A DNA stretch of 64,000 nt from Promethearchaeota archaeon (lineage in GTDB: Archaea; Asgardarchaeota; Lokiarchaeia; Sigyniarchaeales; SOKP01): assembly GCA_016839555.1 (NCBI GenBank), contig JAEOUA010000012.1:96001-160000 (forward strand). Reading direction: 5' to 3'. The notes beneath the pieces are model-generated. The model was not told the origin of the DNA. It saw only the letters and a list, made by a program, of their open reading frames with translations, and ran no database searches. Below are positions 9,602 to 58,427 of this stretch, in pieces. Every line of letters starts with the position of its first letter. Positions within the stretch are counted from its first letter, which is position 1. The translations under genes were made by a program, and so were the position numbers.

Positions 9602-10078
9602 ATGAAGAGTTTAATTGTATTCTATACTAGGACAGGAAATACAAAAAAAATTGCAGAATTGATAGCTAAAAGCCTTAATGCTGATTTAGATGAAATAATT
9701 GACCCAAAAAAGCGACTCGGAATCTTTGGATTCCTAAAAGCTGGATATGAAGCCACTATGAAAAAACTGACTGAGATCAAAGGAATTGAAAAAGATCCAT
9801 CGGATTATAAGCTTCTTGTTTTAGGTTCGCCAATCTGGAATAAACGAATGACCCCGGCACTCAGAACATATATCACAAGATATAAAGAAAAATTTAGTAA
9901 AATCGCAATATTTTGCTCCGCAGGTGGAAGGGGTGAAGAGCAAATGCTTGATAGTATTGCAGAATTATGTAATAAGAAACCCGTTGCGATGAAGGTATTT
10001 CTTGATAAGGATTTTGAACAGAATTTTGTGGAAAACAAGGTTGAACAATTTGTTAACGCAATTAAATCTAATTTTTAA
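9602..10078 (+). CDS. Flavodoxin-like protein
   Basis: YTRTGNTKKIA FMN-binding loop, LGSPIW. Confidence 0.88.
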   Translation: MKSLIVFYTRTGNTKKIAELIAKSLNADLDEIIDPKKRLGIFGFLKAGYEATMKKLTEIKGIEKDPSDYKLLVLGSPIWNKRMTPALRTYITRYKEKFSKIAIFCSAGGRGEEQMLDSIAELCNKKPVAMKVFLDKDFEQNFVENKVEQFVNAIKSNF

Positions 10079-10583
10079 GATTGCGATTCGTGGTTCTTAT
10101 TATATCCCCTTGTTCTAAAAAAGAGATACCACATACAGTATCCAACAATTCTATTCTAATTATCTTATCAGGATTTTCGAGATCAACTGGATTATTTAAA
10201 AGATTTGCGACCGTCTCGATTAGTGCATCTCTCTCAATTAATTTATTTTTTCTTCGTTTTAATGTTATTCTAAAAGAATCTTGTCTCTCAATATAAGTGC
10301 TATAATTTTCTTTTACTATTTTTTTTATTAATTCTAAATCTGTTTCACAAATAAACTGTATTGGCACAATTTTTAAAACATATTTAAAGAAATTAGGATC
10401 TTTCTCTAAAATTTCTTTTATTTTCTTTATGATTTCAAGTTCAGGCAAATTAGTGAAAGCAGTAATCAATCCTTGATATTCTAAATTAGAGATCACTGAA
10501 TATTTGTCTCCGCAGATTAATAGAACAAACCACAACTCCGCTTTTGCATCTGTTTCATTAAATCGCGGTGCCGATACCAGCAA
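10068..10583 (-). CDS. THUMP-domain tRNA-binding protein (Tan1-like)
   Basis: LKIVPI, SFRITLKRR, VDLENPDKIIRIE; true start may be upstream (see findings). Confidence 0.85.
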   Translation of the reverse strand: MLVSAPRFNETDAKAELWFVLLICGDKYSVISNLEYQGLITAFTNLPELEIIKKIKEILEKDPNFFKYVLKIVPIQFICETDLELIKKIVKENYSTYIERQDSFRITLKRRKNKLIERDALIETVANLLNNPVDLENPDKIIRIELLDTVCGISFLEQGDIIRTTNRNLKN

Positions 10584-10631
10584 ATTAAAATTTTTCAGAT
10601 TATATCCCCCTTTTCCAAAATTATTAAATAT

Positions 10632-11291
10632 TCATCCAGACAAGGCTTCATATATTTGTTCTCTGGTAATTTTACCTTCTCTGAGTATATCTATCTCGTG
10701 TTTTGTACAATCTACTATTGTAGTAGGAATTTTTGAGCGCGTCTCTCCGTTGTCTATGATAAAATCAATTGGATTTAAGAATTTTCTAGAAATTTCTTGC
10801 CCATCTGTTGATGGCTCTTCTCCAGCATAATTTGCCGATGTGCCAGCTATTCCTCCAAAATTCCCTTTCTTTTTTAATAAATTTAAAATTTCACGGATAA
10901 TTTCATTTTTTGGAACCCTTAATCCAATAGTCTCTTCGTTAGCACTCACCACAGGTGGAATAATGCATTGAGGTTTTCTTTTCAAAATTAATGATAATTC
11001 TCCAGGCCAGAATTGATCGGCTAACTTTCTGGCAGGATCATTGAATTCCGCAATCTTCTCTGCTTCTTGAATATCATACACGAGTAGTAAAAATCCTTTT
11101 GATGCATCTCTAAACTTGATATTAAATAATCTTTTAACAGCGTTAAGATTAGTTGGATCACATCCAAGTCCATATACAGAATCAGTAGGAAAAGCTATAA
11201 TATTACCATCAATGATGTTTTCTACGGCAATATCTAAAAAAACCTTTATGTCTTCAAGAGCTTTCCCAATTACTTTAACCAGAAATCCCAT
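10632..11291 (-). CDS. sua5: L-threonylcarbamoyladenylate synthase (Sua5/TsaC)
   Basis: AFPTDSVYGLGC, KFR, FWPGELS, GLRVP, TSAN. Confidence 0.93.
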   Translation of the reverse strand: MGFLVKVIGKALEDIKVFLDIAVENIIDGNIIAFPTDSVYGLGCDPTNLNAVKRLFNIKFRDASKGFLLLVYDIQEAEKIAEFNDPARKLADQFWPGELSLILKRKPQCIIPPVVSANEETIGLRVPKNEIIREILNLLKKKGNFGGIAGTSANYAGEEPSTDGQEISRKFLNPIDFIIDNGETRSKIPTTIVDCTKHEIDILREGKITREQIYEALSG

Positions 11292-11390: not shown

Positions 11391-12317
11391 TTATTGACAC
11401 CTAAGCTCGTTTTCAAGAGTTCTCCATTGTTTATCAATACGGTCTTGTAGTTCTATGAGTGCTTTCTCTGAAAGAGTAGAAAATCTTTTTTGAGTTTGGA
11501 CATAATCCATTAAAGGTAATCTTTTCTCTGGATCCAATAATCTCTTGCTTGCTTTTGAAAGAGTTTTCTTCCCATTCTCCACTTCATAAAGAATCCAAAA
11601 TCCACTTTTTACAGCCAATCTTGCAATCTCCACCGTATCTTCTGCCGGAAAGCCCCATCCAGGCGGGCAAGGTGCTAAAATATGAATATATCGACATCCC
11701 TTAATATTTTTTGCTTTTTTGAATTTCTCATATAGATCTAAGGGCTCTGAAATGCTACAAGTTGCCACATAGGGAATGTCATGCGCCTCCATTATACGTG
11801 GGACATCCTTTTTATACCTCTGTTTACCAAAGGGAGTGGTAGTTGTTTTTGCACCATGGGGTGTTGAACTGCTTCTCTGGATGCCGGTATTCATATACGC
11901 TTCATTATCATAACACACATAAAGTATATCTGAGTTTCGTTCAGCAGCACCGCTTAGTCCTTGTATTCCTATATCGGTAGTCCCTCCATCACCCGCGAAT
12001 ACTAAAGCTGTCATTTCATCCCATTTTCCCTCAGGAAATCGAAATGCTTTTGCCTTAAATGCGGCATCAAAGCCAGTAGCTGCTGCAGCGCCCGCTGCAA
12101 ATGCCATGTTAATAAATGGAAACTCTGGTGCTGTTTTTGGCCAAAGCCCCACAACTACATTCAAACAGGACGCAGGAGCGACTAAAGCGGTCTTGGGTCC
12201 TAAGGCTTTCATTGCCCAGCGAAGGGCTATTTCCAGACCACATCCCGCACAGCATGAATTTCCTGGAAGAAAATACTCTTCAGTTGCTTCCTCTAAAGCT
12301 TGTTTAAGACTAACCAT
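11391..12317 (-). CDS. porB: 2-oxoacid:ferredoxin oxidoreductase beta subunit (Por/Vor family, TPP-binding)
   Basis: CAGCG, GDGGTTDIG, YDNEAYMNTGIQRS, APCPPGW. Confidence 0.92.
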   Translation of the reverse strand: MVSLKQALEEATEEYFLPGNSCCAGCGLEIALRWAMKALGPKTALVAPASCLNVVVGLWPKTAPEFPFINMAFAAGAAAATGFDAAFKAKAFRFPEGKWDEMTALVFAGDGGTTDIGIQGLSGAAERNSDILYVCYDNEAYMNTGIQRSSSTPHGAKTTTTPFGKQRYKKDVPRIMEAHDIPYVATCSISEPLDLYEKFKKAKNIKGCRYIHILAPCPPGWGFPAEDTVEIARLAVKSGFWILYEVENGKKTLSKASKRLLDPEKRLPLMDYVQTQKRFSTLSEKALIELQDRIDKQWRTLENELRCQ

Positions 12318-13589
12318 TTATTTCACCTCTAATTTTCCATGCCAGAGAGTTCCATGAATTAAATCTTTTGGAAGCTCTCCAGTTTCATGCATTTTTACTA
12401 ATGTTTTTAATTGATCTTTTTGCTCTTCTAAACTCACTTCTCTTCCACCTAATCCTGAAATGATTGGCAATACTTGCGTTTTTATGCCCGTATTATAGAG
12501 GGAGGTCTTCACTTCACTGCTGACCGGACCACCTGTTGGTGAACCAAACGCTGTTGCGCGATCCACTACTCCTAAAACTTTTACCTTTTTTGCAGCTTTT
12601 CTTATATCTTCAACCGGAAACGGTCTAAAATGTCTCAATTTAAGCATTCCCACTTTATATCCTTCCTCTCTCAATTCATCTACTGCTTGCTCCATTTGTA
12701 ATGCTAAATCGCCATAAATAATAATACCAGCATCCGCATCATCTAAATGATATTCTTGAACTAATCCATTCCCGTAATTTCTCCCAAATTTTTTTTCAAA
12801 CTCTTTCGTCGCTTCCTTAATCTTTTCTTGGGCTTTCATCATCGCATCATGAATTTTTAATCGAAATTCGCTATAAAATCCAGATGGCATAATCAAATTT
12901 CCATGCATCATAGGTCTATCTGGATCAATGAAAATGTGAGGCCAGCCTTTTTCATCTGGTAAAGGTGGTAAATATTCGTCGACAATATCTTGATCTTCTA
13001 TGATAACTGGTTTAGAGGTATGTGATAGGATAAATCCACCATACGCAACAAATTTTGGTAAGAGAACATCATAATCTTCACAAACCTTATACGACATTAA
13101 AATTTCATCGTATATCTCTTGATGACTTGCCACGAAGGAACTTAACCATCCTGTATCTCTGGCCGCTATTACATCGGTGAAATCAGCCCAGATATTCCAT
13201 GGAGGCGCTACTCCGCGACTTACAATAGCTGTAACTATAGGTAGCCTACTAGAGCTCGCCCAATGAATCATTTCATACATGTAGAAAAGTCCCTGCCCCG
13301 CTGTTGCAGTAAATGTGCGTGTTCCTGCAATACTGGCTCCTACAATTGAAGCCATTACGGAGTGTTCACTCTCTACTTTAATATATTGAGTGCCTGGCAT
13401 TAATCCTCCATCGACGAATTCTGACAACTTTTCAACAACCGTAGTTTGGGGGGTAATAGGATAAGCACTAATGACTTGCACTCTAGCTGACTTAGCCGCA
13501 TAGGCTGTAGCTACATTTCCTTTTACAACTTTAATTTCCCTGTTTTGAATAAAATTTTTATGTTTCGCTTCAGTCATCTTCTGCTTCAC
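12318..13589 (-). CDS. porA: 2-oxoacid:ferredoxin oxidoreductase alpha subunit
   Basis: AYPITPQT, VESEHS, FTATAGQG, FRPFP, GLGGRE. Confidence 0.92.
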   Translation of the reverse strand: MKQKMTEAKHKNFIQNREIKVVKGNVATAYAAKSARVQVISAYPITPQTTVVEKLSEFVDGGLMPGTQYIKVESEHSVMASIVGASIAGTRTFTATAGQGLFYMYEMIHWASSSRLPIVTAIVSRGVAPPWNIWADFTDVIAARDTGWLSSFVASHQEIYDEILMSYKVCEDYDVLLPKFVAYGGFILSHTSKPVIIEDQDIVDEYLPPLPDEKGWPHIFIDPDRPMMHGNLIMPSGFYSEFRLKIHDAMMKAQEKIKEATKEFEKKFGRNYGNGLVQEYHLDDADAGIIIYGDLALQMEQAVDELREEGYKVGMLKLRHFRPFPVEDIRKAAKKVKVLGVVDRATAFGSPTGGPVSSEVKTSLYNTGIKTQVLPIISGLGGREVSLEEQKDQLKTLVKMHETGELPKDLIHGTLWHGKLEVK

Positions 13590-13923
13590 TCTCCCGAATC
13601 ATTTTAATATTGTTTGTCGGGCATTCTCTAGCGCAGATTCCACAGCCTTTACAATATATATAGTCTATTTCAAAGCTGCCATCCTCTTTTTTGCTAATAA
13701 TACCCTCTGGACAATATAACCAGCAAATCCCACATTTGTTACACCCTTCTAAAATTACAGGTCTGAACGTTCGCCAATCTCCCGTTATTCCTATACTCGC
13801 TTTTATTGGTAAAGAGATAGGAATTGGAGGCAGCTCTTTCCAATTTTTATATTCTTGAATTTCAGGCCTTTCTTCTCTGGATTTATTAATTTTTTTCCAT
13901 TTTTCTGTTTCTGATTTGCTCAT
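13570..13923 (-). CDS. porD: 2-oxoacid:ferredoxin oxidoreductase delta subunit (2x[4Fe-4S])
   Basis: TGDWRTFRP, CNKCGICWLYCP, YCKGCGICARECP. Confidence 0.93.
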   Translation of the reverse strand: MSKSETEKWKKINKSREERPEIQEYKNWKELPPIPISLPIKASIGITGDWRTFRPVILEGCNKCGICWLYCPEGIISKKEDGSFEIDYIYCKGCGICARECPTNNIKMIRESEAEDD

Positions 13924-14501
13924 TATTTAACCTCCTTAACTGAGTTAAAAGCCTCCTTGGCAACTTTCATGTTTAAAGTAGTTCGACTCTCCCCAAACTC
14001 TTTCATTAAGACTTTTTTCATGGTTTCAAGATCATAAAATCCCGTAATTTTGCCAAAAGCAGCTAACATAGGAACGTTTAATATCGGTCCGCTTGAAATC
14101 ATAAACTTATGTTCAATACATATTCCGGTGGCATCCACCATATATATCTTTAAATTTTCTGGTAATCCTTGTGTATCAATAGGTTTGTCGGTATTCACGA
14201 TTAATATTGTTCCTTCTTTTATACTCTCTCTTATTCTTGGAATCTCCAATAAGGTTGTATCAAAAATGAATTGATAATCTGGATGAGACACACTTTCATA
14301 TGCTTTTATTTGTTTTTCTTTTGAGATTTTAGTAAAGGCACTGATGGGGGCACCTCTACGTTCTGCTCCTATAATAGGAATAGCAAACACGTCAGTGAAT
14401 CCATTCTCAAAAGCAAATTTAGCCAAAAGCTGACTCGCGGTAACTGCTGTCTGTCCTCCGCGTCCAGCAAATGAAATCTCAATTATTCCGTTCGCCATCA
14501 A
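13923..14501 (-). CDS. porG: 2-oxoacid:ferredoxin oxidoreductase gamma subunit
   Basis: GRGGQ, GAERRGAP, VDATGI, NVPMLAA. Confidence 0.92.
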   Translation of the reverse strand: MMANGIIEISFAGRGGQTAVTASQLLAKFAFENGFTDVFAIPIIGAERRGAPISAFTKISKEKQIKAYESVSHPDYQFIFDTTLLEIPRIRESIKEGTILIVNTDKPIDTQGLPENLKIYMVDATGICIEHKFMISSGPILNVPMLAAFGKITGFYDLETMKKVLMKEFGESRTTLNMKVAKEAFNSVKEVK

Positions 14502-14548
14502 TTTTTTCCAACTTTTTCTTTTTGATTTTTAATAATATTTATTTAATC

Positions 14549-14596
14549 AATACAACCAAGAAAAAAAGTTCAAACCAAGATTTTTTTGGTTGTATT
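14549..14596 (-). promoter_or_regulatory. Putative attenuator hairpin/U-tract between the Ile/Leu/Val leader and porG
   Basis: Perfect 11-bp inverted repeat AATACAACCAA/TTGGTTGTATT overlapping the leader stop, enclosing a second TCTTGGTT copy and a T7 tract on the transcript strand. Confidence 0.6.
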
Positions 14597-14699
14597 ATAA
14601 AATTGAAATAATTACTACTACTTGTAGTAATAAAATTACAATACCTAATAATAATAAGTTTAGAACTGGTGCTGCATTATTATAGTCCATAGAAATCAT
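14595..14699 (-). CDS. Putative Ile/Leu/Val attenuation leader peptide MISMDYNNAAPVLNLLLLGIVILLLQVVVIISIL (34 aa)
   Basis: Translated by hand; 19 of the last 23 codons are I/L/V; co-oriented and about 94 nt upstream of porG; alternative ATG at 14690. Confidence 0.65.
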   Translation of the reverse strand: MISMDYNNAAPVLNLLLLGIVILLLQVVVIISIL

Positions 14700-14904
14700 A
14701 GTGTTCTAACCTTTAATTATTATTATATTATCTATTTTTAAGTGGTAAATTTTTTTTTAATTAAAAATTTTTTGATTAGATATGAAAAATTAAAGATAAT
14801 GATCAATTACCTATCTTAATCTGAAATGAATGTTATATTTTCTATAAAGATTTTTAAGATTTAATAGTAATTAATAATAAAAGTTTAAATCCCCTATAAA
14901 GTCA

Positions 14905-15432
14905 ATGAACACCTTACGCTGTCCCAAATGTAAAGAGGGAATAATAGAGATTTCCAAAACGATATATAATCTCCCGGATAATGACAAAATGCTTTTAATA
15001 AAATTAGAATGCAACAAGTGCGATTTTATTAATAAAGATATTATCCCAATAACAACTCGAACCGAACCGGGTATCTCACAATTAAAAATAACTAATGAAA
15101 AAGACCTTATATCTAAAGTGTATCGATCCCCCACAGCAAAAATAGAGATTCCTGAATTAGAACTAGAAGCTGAACCTGGCCCAGCAGCCCCTTTTTATTT
15201 CACCAATATTGAGGGAATATTAAATAGGTTTGAAAAAGCAGTAATTTCATATAAAAATGCATTAGTAGCAGATCAACTTGAAACTAAAGATATTGATGTA
15301 ATCCTTGAAAATATAAAAAAAGCGTATGATGGAAATTTTTCTTTTACCTTGAAAATTATCGACCAAAGTGGAGGAAGTTATATAATCCCGGAAGATAAAT
15401 CAAAATACAGTTTTATAAAACTTCACTCATAA
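14905..15432 (+). CDS. ZPR1 zinc-finger domain protein
   Basis: CPKC..CNKC, VYRSPTAKIEIPELELEAEPG, TNIEGIL, IIDQSGGSYI. Confidence 0.9.
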   Translation: MNTLRCPKCKEGIIEISKTIYNLPDNDKMLLIKLECNKCDFINKDIIPITTRTEPGISQLKITNEKDLISKVYRSPTAKIEIPELELEAEPGPAAPFYFTNIEGILNRFEKAVISYKNALVADQLETKDIDVILENIKKAYDGNFSFTLKIIDQSGGSYIIPEDKSKYSFIKLHS

Positions 15433-36229: not shown

Positions 36230-37849
36230 CTACTTCTCAGTTTGTTTATAAGACTGTATCTTATTTAGTCCTTTCAATAATGCAAGCACACTACTCATTA
36301 CAATATCTTCATGTGTGGCGCTGGTCGTTACTATATAATGAGTATCTAAATCCATTAATTCTATCATTACATTTCCAAGAGCATCACTTCCACCGGTAAT
36401 AGCGTCGATATTATATTCAAGCAATTTTACTCTACTCATTGGTTCAAAACATTTAACTATGGCTTTTACAGAAGCATCTACAGGTCCAACACCGGTTGAT
36501 GATGCTAATTTTTCAATAAATTCTCCATTGTTTTTGATTTTAAGACGAACAGTGGAAGTAGGAGTTATAGAACCTGTTAATACTGTCAATTCATCGAGAA
36601 TAACATATTGTTCTTCTTCTGGAAGCTCTCCCATAACATCTTTCACGATTGCGAGAAAATCTTCTTCGGCAACTTCGTGCCCCTTATCTCCGTATCTTTT
36701 GACATTTGTAAATATCTTCTGAAATTGTTCATCTGAAGGATGAATCCCTAAGTCTTCTAATTTGGCTTTAAGCGCATGACCTCCTGTATGTTTTCCCAGC
36801 TTAATAGATTGTTTTACAATTTCTTCTACATTGTCTGTTCTTTTAATGCCGATTAATTCAGGAGTGATAGGCTCATATGCTCTCGCATTTTTGATCATTG
36901 CATGGGCATGAATTCCTGATTCGTGAGCAAAGGCATTCTGTCCTATTAAAGGTTGGAGACGACCAATTTTAATCTTGCCCCCGCAATAGCTTTCTATGAG
37001 TTTTGCGGTAGGAAATATTAATCTTGTATTTATATTCATTGGTACTTGATAAAGAGCATATAGAGACATCGCAGTTTCTTCAAAAGAAGCATTGCCAGCC
37101 CGCTCACCAAGCCCCATAATGGTTGTTTGAGCCTCTGACGCTCCATTTTCAAAACCTGCGATGGTGTTTGCTACAGCTAATCCAAAATCATTATGACAAT
37201 GAACTGCAATTCTAATATTTTTTGGTAAAGCTTCATAGTTTTGTCTAACAATAAATCCAAAGGCATTTGGGGAGATAGTGCCCACAGTATCAGGAATATT
37301 GACACGCGTGGCCCCATGCTCAATAGCTGTCTTATTCGCTTTTATTAAAAAATCAAGATCAGATCTCGTAGCATCTTCAGCTGAAAATAAAACTTTTTCA
37401 TAATGATCCTTCGCATAAGATACATGTTCAGCGATGCTCTCTATAACCTCTTGAGGGGTCATTTCTAGTTTTTCTCTCATATGTAATTCTGATGTGGCGA
37501 TAAAGACATGGATACTATCCATATCTGCCTCGATAACTTTATCTATATCCAATTTTTTCATCCGTGCTAATCCAATGATCTCGGAATTTAGTCCTAATTT
37601 TGAAATATCTCTACAAGCAGCAAAATCTCCCTCTGAGATTACGGGAAATCCTGCTTCAATAACATCAATTCCAAGCTCATTTAATGAGCTTGCTATTGAT
37701 AACTTCTCTTCGTGTGTGAACGATATGCCTGGAGTCTGCTCACCATCACGAAGAGTTGTATCAAAAAAATAAGCCTTATCAGGAAGCAATAGATTCTTCC
37801 TTAGCTTTTCCATCATAGTCGAAACATAAATTTCCTTCTTTTCCATCAT
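36230..37849 (-). CDS. leuA: 2-isopropylmalate synthase (LeuA/CimA family, with regulatory domain)
   Basis: DTTLRDGEQTPG, HCHNDFG, GERAGNA, HESGIH, GVGPVDA; upstream Leu-rich leader favours LeuA over CimA. Confidence 0.85.
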   Translation of the reverse strand: MMEKKEIYVSTMMEKLRKNLLLPDKAYFFDTTLRDGEQTPGISFTHEEKLSIASSLNELGIDVIEAGFPVISEGDFAACRDISKLGLNSEIIGLARMKKLDIDKVIEADMDSIHVFIATSELHMREKLEMTPQEVIESIAEHVSYAKDHYEKVLFSAEDATRSDLDFLIKANKTAIEHGATRVNIPDTVGTISPNAFGFIVRQNYEALPKNIRIAVHCHNDFGLAVANTIAGFENGASEAQTTIMGLGERAGNASFEETAMSLYALYQVPMNINTRLIFPTAKLIESYCGGKIKIGRLQPLIGQNAFAHESGIHAHAMIKNARAYEPITPELIGIKRTDNVEEIVKQSIKLGKHTGGHALKAKLEDLGIHPSDEQFQKIFTNVKRYGDKGHEVAEEDFLAIVKDVMGELPEEEQYVILDELTVLTGSITPTSTVRLKIKNNGEFIEKLASSTGVGPVDASVKAIVKCFEPMSRVKLLEYNIDAITGGSDALGNVMIELMDLDTHYIVTTSATHEDIVMSSVLALLKGLNKIQSYKQTEK

Positions 37850-37950: not shown

Positions 37951-38055
37951 TTATAATAATAAGAGTAGATTTAATATACTCAAAGATAAACTAAGGGATA
38001 AAATCTGTTTTAAATTTAGTTTTCTAAAAAGTATCGTGGTTTTCAATTGAAGCAT
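37951..38055 (-). CDS. Putative Leu attenuation leader peptide MLQLKTTILFRKLNLKQILSLSLSLSILNLLLLL (34 aa)
   Basis: Translated by hand; 15 of 34 residues Leu, ending in 5 consecutive Leu codons; AAGGA upstream of the ATG; about 100 nt before leuA. Confidence 0.72.
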   Translation of the reverse strand: MLQLKTTILFRKLNLKQILSLSLSLSILNLLLLL

Positions 38056-58373: not shown

Positions 58374-58427
58374 CTATTCGTGCCAACGCCAAGCCCAAAA
58401 CCAAGTTTCGTTAAAAAAATAGGTCAT
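58374..58427 (-). CDS. Putative Trp attenuation leader peptide MTYFFNETWFWAWRWHE (17 aa)
   Basis: Four TGG codons within seven codons; local GC spike; hairpin spans the last Trp codons with the stop in its loop. Confidence 0.75.
   Translation of the reverse strand: MTYFFNETWFWAWRWHE

Follow-up and report, generated by a model that had tools for sequence, protein, structure and literature searches.

An Ile/Leu/Val-rich leader peptide with a stop-adjacent, terminator-less hairpin: most likely bacterial-style amino acid sensing upstream of a 2-oxoacid:ferredoxin oxidoreductase operon in Asgard archaea

Leader-peptide attenuation is a textbook mechanism of bacterial gene regulation, and in Escherichia coli short upstream open reading frames (uORFs) with runs of cognate codons stand before the branched-chain operons (ilvL-ilvGMEDA, ivbL-ilvBN and leuL). 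The trpY leader of Methanothermobacter thermautotrophicus contains a Met-Trp minigene, which resembles the uORF described here in being archaeal and in offering a cognate codon within an amino acid leader; it has two codons, is linked to the TrpY repressor and is not known to have a codon run or a stop-adjacent hairpin. Mycobacterial polycysteine sORFs act as attenuators in a "Cys ribulon", where an RNA structure hides the downstream ribosome-binding site (10.1101/834739). In archaea, U-tract termination by aCPSF1/FttA has been described for gene ends (PMC8716108; reviewed in PMC13675443), and the Loki-aCPSF1 is active, terminates at U-tracts and needs U-rich RNA but not a hairpin (PMC8716108); regarding a link with attenuation and uORFs, neither source mentions attenuation. 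No report of an archaeal leader-peptide attenuator was found in the open-access literature, whose coverage is incomplete and which is therefore not proof.

The stretch of DNA analyzed here (the window) comprises 64,000 nucleotides of a Promethearchaeota archaeon (G000:C12:96001-160000; assembly of 3.74 Mb in 12 contigs, 92% complete). On its minus strand, a four-gene operon encodes the gamma (porG/vorC type, 13923-14498, with an alternative TTG start at 14501), delta (ferredoxin-like, 13570-13923), alpha (12318-13589) and beta (11391-12317) subunits of a 2-oxoacid:ferredoxin oxidoreductase, the alpha subunit being 91% identical to those of the closest named Promethearchaeota/Promethearchaeia (Lokiarchaeia, Asgard) MAGs. 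A 34-codon uORF with an ATG start (14595-14699, minus strand) precedes the operon, its stop ending 96 nt upstream of the porG ATG. Following a variable N-terminal third, its translation runs into Ile, Leu and Val (ILV) codons that reach the stop; as counted in a preliminary description of this DNA, the last 23 codons (14598-14666) hold 19 I/L/V and no Phe, Ala or Met, and the A7 and T7 tracts noted there are present. In a blind ranking of the 5,144 intergenic uORFs of the genome, this one is the best enriched in ILV (best-window binomial P 7e-7, uncorrected). About 10 nt 5' of its ATG lies a conserved AAAG(G/T)T(A/G)GA-like motif (14704-14714), which recurs before porG and is probably a weak ribosome-binding site; the genome-wide Shine-Dalgarno sequence is GGTGA-like, and no 16S 3' end was found in the 92%-complete assembly. 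A candidate TATA-like box (14733-14742) was identified by eye about 40 nt 5' of the ATG, here and in several close orthologs. A ZPR1-like gene (14905-15432, plus strand) diverges from the leader, and 3' of the operon, on its strand (10068-11291), are TsaC/Sua5 (t6A synthesis) and a THUMP-domain gene.

The preliminary description had suggested looking for the uORF upstream of orthologous operons, and relatives indeed keep it at a fixed place. An ILV-rich uORF followed by a stop-adjacent hairpin lies upstream of the orthologous gamma gene at 35 Promethearchaeia loci from four families (28 in the window genome's family and 7 of 7 sampled from three more distant ones), and genome G120 carries a looser copy beyond these 35. 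The leaders are 29-38 codons long, end 82-151 nt upstream of the gamma start and have about 15-19 ILV codons each, reaching the stop. Their N-terminal third varies freely, the last 20 residues are 78% I/L/V (Phe 3%, Ala 1%), and the last five positions are ILV at a frequency of 0.94-1.0. Leaders of the window genome's family prefer GTA for Val (90%, genome 35%) and TTA for Leu (77%, genome 51%), and those of the distant families CTT for Leu and GTT and GTC for Val; because the codons change between families and the residues stay ILV, selection acts on the amino acid. No ILV leader was found at 14 loci from two further families belonging to this order, nor at 14 homologous loci in other Asgard classes, a negative control in which the best 16 residues hold 3-8 ILV versus 10-15 in real leaders. 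A covariance model of the leader, searched against its own genome, matched only its own locus and the reverse strand of that locus, and against Rfam the best E was 1.1, every match falling far under the gathering cut-off. One close relative with leuA (L004, G001:C209) has no leader and an unrelated porG upstream region with a repeated GC-richer element, which may reflect rearrangement, insertion or misassembly.

The genome contains further leaders of this kind. When uORFs were ranked per residue, the first for Leu lay before leuA (67% L), for Ile before cimA (60% I), for Trp before trpB2 (31% W) and for Ala before an ilvE paralog (41% A), all four being conserved in relatives with the matching residue. 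The Leu-rich uORF with its own stop-adjacent hairpin (37951-38055, minus strand) is in the window, 101 nt upstream of leuA (36230-37849); it is kept in about 26 of 30 loci, another family included, where a complete 6.0-Mb genome (G055) carries it; its 3' arm is purine-rich without a U-tract, and it matches the por leader in geometry and in median spacer (94 nt). The Trp leader (L032, G000:C5:557981-558043, minus strand) is found in about 18 of 30 loci; by eye, the spacing between its last Trp codon and a conserved GCATTGG seems to vary less than the spacing between the stop and that segment, and the GCATTGG segment can pair with a conserved downstream hairpin. A 17-codon uORF with four alternating Trp codons, a pattern as in the trpB2 leader, lies in the window at 58374-58427 (minus strand). 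The Ala/Val/Leu leader (L031, G000:C10:223095-223196, minus strand) precedes one of two ilvE-like genes, occurs in about 10 loci and has two apparently exclusive helices 3' of its stop. The Ile leader (L033, G000:C1, ending at 99406, plus strand) precedes the citramalate synthase gene, and in another family an Ile leader also stands before an internal gene of a leu-cim-ilv cluster (L151-L153). Together, the fixed place of the uORF, the ILV kept in orthologs and the cognate sister leaders support the core of the preliminary description, an ILV-sensing leader peptide controlling the operon, and on this comparative evidence we regard the element as very probably a ribosome sensor.

The second conserved feature is a hairpin whose 5' arm (14581-14597) starts at the stop codon and whose 3' arm (14548-14567) includes a U7 (14567-14561), both arms resting on folding and covariation. 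This is the far hairpin of the preliminary description, and it is borne out (-14.1 kcal/mol, z = -4.2 versus shuffles); among 65-nt windows at 462 convergent gene ends, only 1.3% fold to -14 or below. In 35 of 35 leaders the start of the hairpin falls at -3 to +4 nt relative to the end of the stop codon, and the hairpin ends at least 45 nt upstream of the operon start. Across 20 copies from the window genome's family, its pairing amounts to 83.7%, 9 of 17 pairs have changed on both sides, and it shows a covariation of 0.214 against 0.133 for shuffled controls (0 of 500 reach it) and at most 0.107 for slid registers, a score inflated by related rows and tested with controls of a type that yields some false positives. 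The arm sequences are wholly unlike between families; the 3' arm is U-rich only in the window genome's family and purine-rich, mostly G-rich, in most copies of the other three. Bacterial-type terminators (a GC-rich hairpin followed by a U-run) number 0 sites, the U-run lying inside the 3' arm instead, and no U-tract 3' of the hairpin was found in the window genome's family, so that, given the family-specific U-rich arm, no single U-tract rule fits all copies. Furthermore, hairpins of -12 or below occur at 2.6% of convergent gene ends in this genome, and long hairpins being rare there, a hairpin is not its usual terminator.

The preliminary description had embedded this hairpin in a two-state switch, in which a near AACCAA/TTGGTT hairpin would leave the T7 free and the far one would mask it. 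This part does not hold. The near hairpin folds to -4.0 kcal/mol (z = -1.35), its partner TTGGTT (14573-14578) lies within the loop of the far hairpin and is not conserved, and of 20 orthologs only L001 and L002, this genome and its nearest relative, form it firmly, with weak versions in L006 and L007. Moreover, the two hairpins share a 5' arm, so that a ribosome has no way to favor one over the other, and masking or freeing of T7 is unsupported given the purine-rich 3' arm in most copies elsewhere and in the leuA leader. The TTACTAC/GTAGTAA hairpin placed inside the control codons (14612-14630) does exist (z = -1.9) but only modestly beats synonymous recodings (mean z of -1.15 across 20 orthologs). 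The window genome's family yielded no conserved alternative helix; two copies in family f6 have a strong competing downstream helix. Readthrough or hungry-codon frameshifting was also considered and rejected, no conserved open frame continuing past the stop: the open length there has a median of 43-45 nt in all three frames, and the stop-to-start phase varies.

The reading we favor, and consider probable, is that of a cis-acting sensor of ribosome dwell that reports charged tRNA-Ile, tRNA-Leu and tRNA-Val, the closed hairpin ending the transcript early and starvation giving readthrough. The uORF would be translated and, with ILV plentiful, quickly cleared by the ribosome, so that the hairpin would close; the transcript would then end early in the untranslated spacer of about 95 nt, most likely through aCPSF1/FttA. 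With ILV scarce, ribosomes lingering on the run would keep the hairpin from closing or the factor from loading, and RNA synthesis would continue into the operon. The placement of the elements is consistent with this: a ribosome standing on one of the last two codons or on the stop covers the start of the hairpin. When the footprint is modeled as reaching +15 from the P site, the basal helix drops to 0.02 when the stop is in the A site, 0.28 one codon upstream and 0.61 two codons upstream. Further upstream it stays at 0.85-0.90; a point against the reading is that most control codons sit too far 5' to touch the hairpin. Because the hairpin is clear of the ribosome-binding site and no open frame continues past the stop, an output step preceding porG translation is favored and seems rather more plausible than a later one. 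Starvation turning the operon on is the likely polarity, since the leuA leader has the same geometry and spacer and the por leader would be starvation-on likewise. aCPSF1 scores above cut-off in 54 of 61 relatives; in the 92%-complete assembly of the window genome, the full-length protein was not found, only a shorter paralog without KH domains (L193).

The sign of the hairpin is the least settled part. The last two codons, at which a stall would open the helix, are strictly ILV, and this suggests that the closed hairpin is the OFF state, which we put at even chances; the large number of control codons further 5' and the U-rich arm speak for a protective role, in our view a tangible minority prospect, and a mere pause or timing element appears improbable. 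In its specific form, the protective alternative keeps sensor and polarity: with a lagging, starved ribosome the helix would form and cover the U-rich 3' arm, and a ribosome reaching the stop would melt the helix and expose the U-run to aCPSF1. This alternative is the nearest viable form of the model in the preliminary description. Indeed, the modeled helix disappears only for a ribosome on the stop or a single codon upstream of it, most control codons lie three or more codons upstream, 80% of the copies in the family have a run of at least 5 U in the spacer, and in the two f6 copies the competing downstream helix wins once the 5' arm is masked. Against this, the strictest ILV is in the last five codons, yet a stall on the last two would mimic the fed state, and the 3' arms of most copies in other families and of the leuA leaders are purine-rich. 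A six-U run also occurs at 57% of ordinary convergent gene ends and is thus not distinctive. We therefore regard this form as unlikely, though the strongest of the competing explanations.

What the sensor might control depends on the operon enzyme, whose HMM scores and PDB comparison do not separate pyruvate (POR) from 2-oxoisovalerate-type (VOR) oxidoreductases. The gamma and delta subunits are above cut-off for TIGR02175 and TIGR02179, respectively. Its four-subunit gamma-delta-alpha-beta organization resembles that of Thermococcales VOR, and beta (VOR 393.6, PorB 382.9 bits) and delta (VOR 105.6, POR 98) score slightly better with VOR models; all alpha (PorA 412.8, VorA 377.5 bits) and beta scores are under both the POR and VOR cut-offs. 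After the conserved Arg, the alpha subunit has a loop that the clade keeps and that differs from its counterpart in 9bt4_B, a pyruvate enzyme of solved structure. The genome has eight POR-domain genes. Methanogens have an anabolic VOR.

The distribution of the leader is more informative. Among 53 genomes in which the states of leader, leuA and the acetohydroxyacid synthase (AHAS) small subunit could all be read, and in which kin are not independent, the leader is present in 26 of 28 with leuA and no detectable AHAS small subunit, in 0 of 18 without leuA (one with an N gap there) and in 0 of 7 with both, a class confounded with clade, its seven genomes being confined to two families in one tree region where the leader is missing anyway. 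The exceptions are G001 and G040, which have leuA without the leader, and G069 (81% complete), which has the leader and in which leuA was not found. A later check showed leuA in G120, the sole sampled member of its genus to keep the leader; the same check on five leaderless genomes turned up none. Start-less remnants of the leader persist in leuA-less genera, and on the gamma-subunit tree the leader label needs 6 changes, 4 of them forced by strong branches. Six decayed leaders (L016, L021, L022, L024, L025 and L027) have an ILV-rich frame without an in-frame ATG and a weak hairpin, one being frameshifted, and leuA was not found in any of their genomes. In the leader- and leuA-bearing genera g3 and g6, ilvC and ilvD were not found in 4 of 4 genomes each (up to 100% complete). 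Both genera have cimA, with its Ile leader, and leuA, the AHAS small subunit likewise not being found, and possibly they route 2-oxobutanoate to Ile through acyl-CoA carboxylation. The window genome has two tandem ilvC-like genes (L224, G000:C10:44859-47085, minus strand), both under the TIGR00465 cut-off and apart from other ilv genes.

The occurrence of the leader with leuA and without the AHAS small subunit points to an enzyme that makes branched-chain 2-oxoacids and is switched on by starvation. On these genomic grounds, the likeliest product of the operon is a branched-chain 2-oxoacid:ferredoxin oxidoreductase working in the synthase direction (acyl-CoA plus CO2), and the simplest reading is that, in genomes lacking the AHAS route, its reductive carboxylation would feed LeuA and a transaminase. 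The opposite polarity would make it a catabolic VOR of peptide fermentation, on with plentiful ILV, starvation sparing the 2-oxoacid precursors. VOR does oxidize branched-chain 2-oxoacids in Pyrococcus (PMC3942289), the por operon is retained in genomes without leuA, and in the window genome's family the arm composition of the hairpin mirrors that of the leuA hairpin. However, the geometry and the 94-nt median spacer match those of the leuA leader, which must be starvation-on, the por hairpin resembles the leuA hairpin in other families, and genomes with AHAS lack the leader, which does occur in genomes in which ilvC and ilvD were not found; together, these points make a fed-on operon quite improbable.

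More doubtful still is translational attenuation, for which the mycobacterial poly-Cys sORFs are a precedent (10.1101/834739): once the 5' arm is masked, the 3' arm would pair with a conserved A-rich segment ahead of porG (14508-14527) and block initiation. This pairing looks attractive in the window genome, where it is predicted at 0.81 with the stop in the A site (mean 0.55), yet it was rejected, there being no covariation (0.079 versus 0.078 shuffled), the native partner ranking at the median 26th percentile of 500 random 5' UTRs and purine-rich arms being unable to form it; we consider this reading very improbable. Least probable of all is that the uORF encodes a stable membrane microprotein of the single-pass type, for which the hairpin would serve as 3'-end signal: the last 20 residues have a mean KD of 1.9-3.6 and membrane-spanning length, and this length is conserved, but, in line with the contrast to Phe-rich transmembrane helices drawn in the preliminary description, Phe makes up 12.6% of the 1,529 transmembrane-like 20-mers of the genome against 3.7% in leaders, none of these 20-mers holds 17 ILV and 0.3% lack F/A/M/W/Y, orthologs do not use Phe or Ala freely, no charged flank follows the run, sister leaders switch residue with the downstream gene, leader loss tracks leuA, and no family match was found.

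The favored ribosome-dwell sensor thus shares with enterobacterial attenuators a uORF of cognate codons and an RNA structure within reach of the translating ribosome, but its control codons run to the stop instead of being set back from it, its host is archaeal and its target a ferredoxin oxidoreductase. Having no intrinsic terminator, no conserved antiterminator and no Rfam match, it is not classed as a member of the ilvL type: it would work like ilvL without being one. With the poly-Cys sORFs it would share a control that needs no terminator and depends on ribosomes occupying a run of codons, with several loci per genome answering to amino acid supply; unlike in those, the start site is not hidden by the hairpin and the uORF has a short leader motif.

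Together, these observations most likely represent leader-peptide sensing in the bacterial style, with a terminator-less stop-adjacent hairpin, in Asgard archaea. A broader picture, which we offer tentatively and regard as rather unlikely in full, is of genome-wide leader-peptide sensors in Promethearchaeia that dispense with a terminator/antiterminator pair, a ribosome at one stop-adjacent hairpin gating cleavage by aCPSF1, and, at the present locus, of an oxidoreductase that replaces AHAS-IlvC-IlvD by carboxylating branched acyl-CoAs. A conserved archaeal case, in a class with cultured relatives of eukaryotes, would provide a short, testable read-out of the coupling of translation to transcription or RNA decay, and it would link uORF control to aCPSF1, a homolog of the eukaryotic CPSF73. 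The leader also doubles as annotation, since it suggests which of the POR-domain genes serves branched-chain amino acids, and it suggests that the oxidoreductase may work as a synthase in organisms commonly portrayed as fermenters of peptides.
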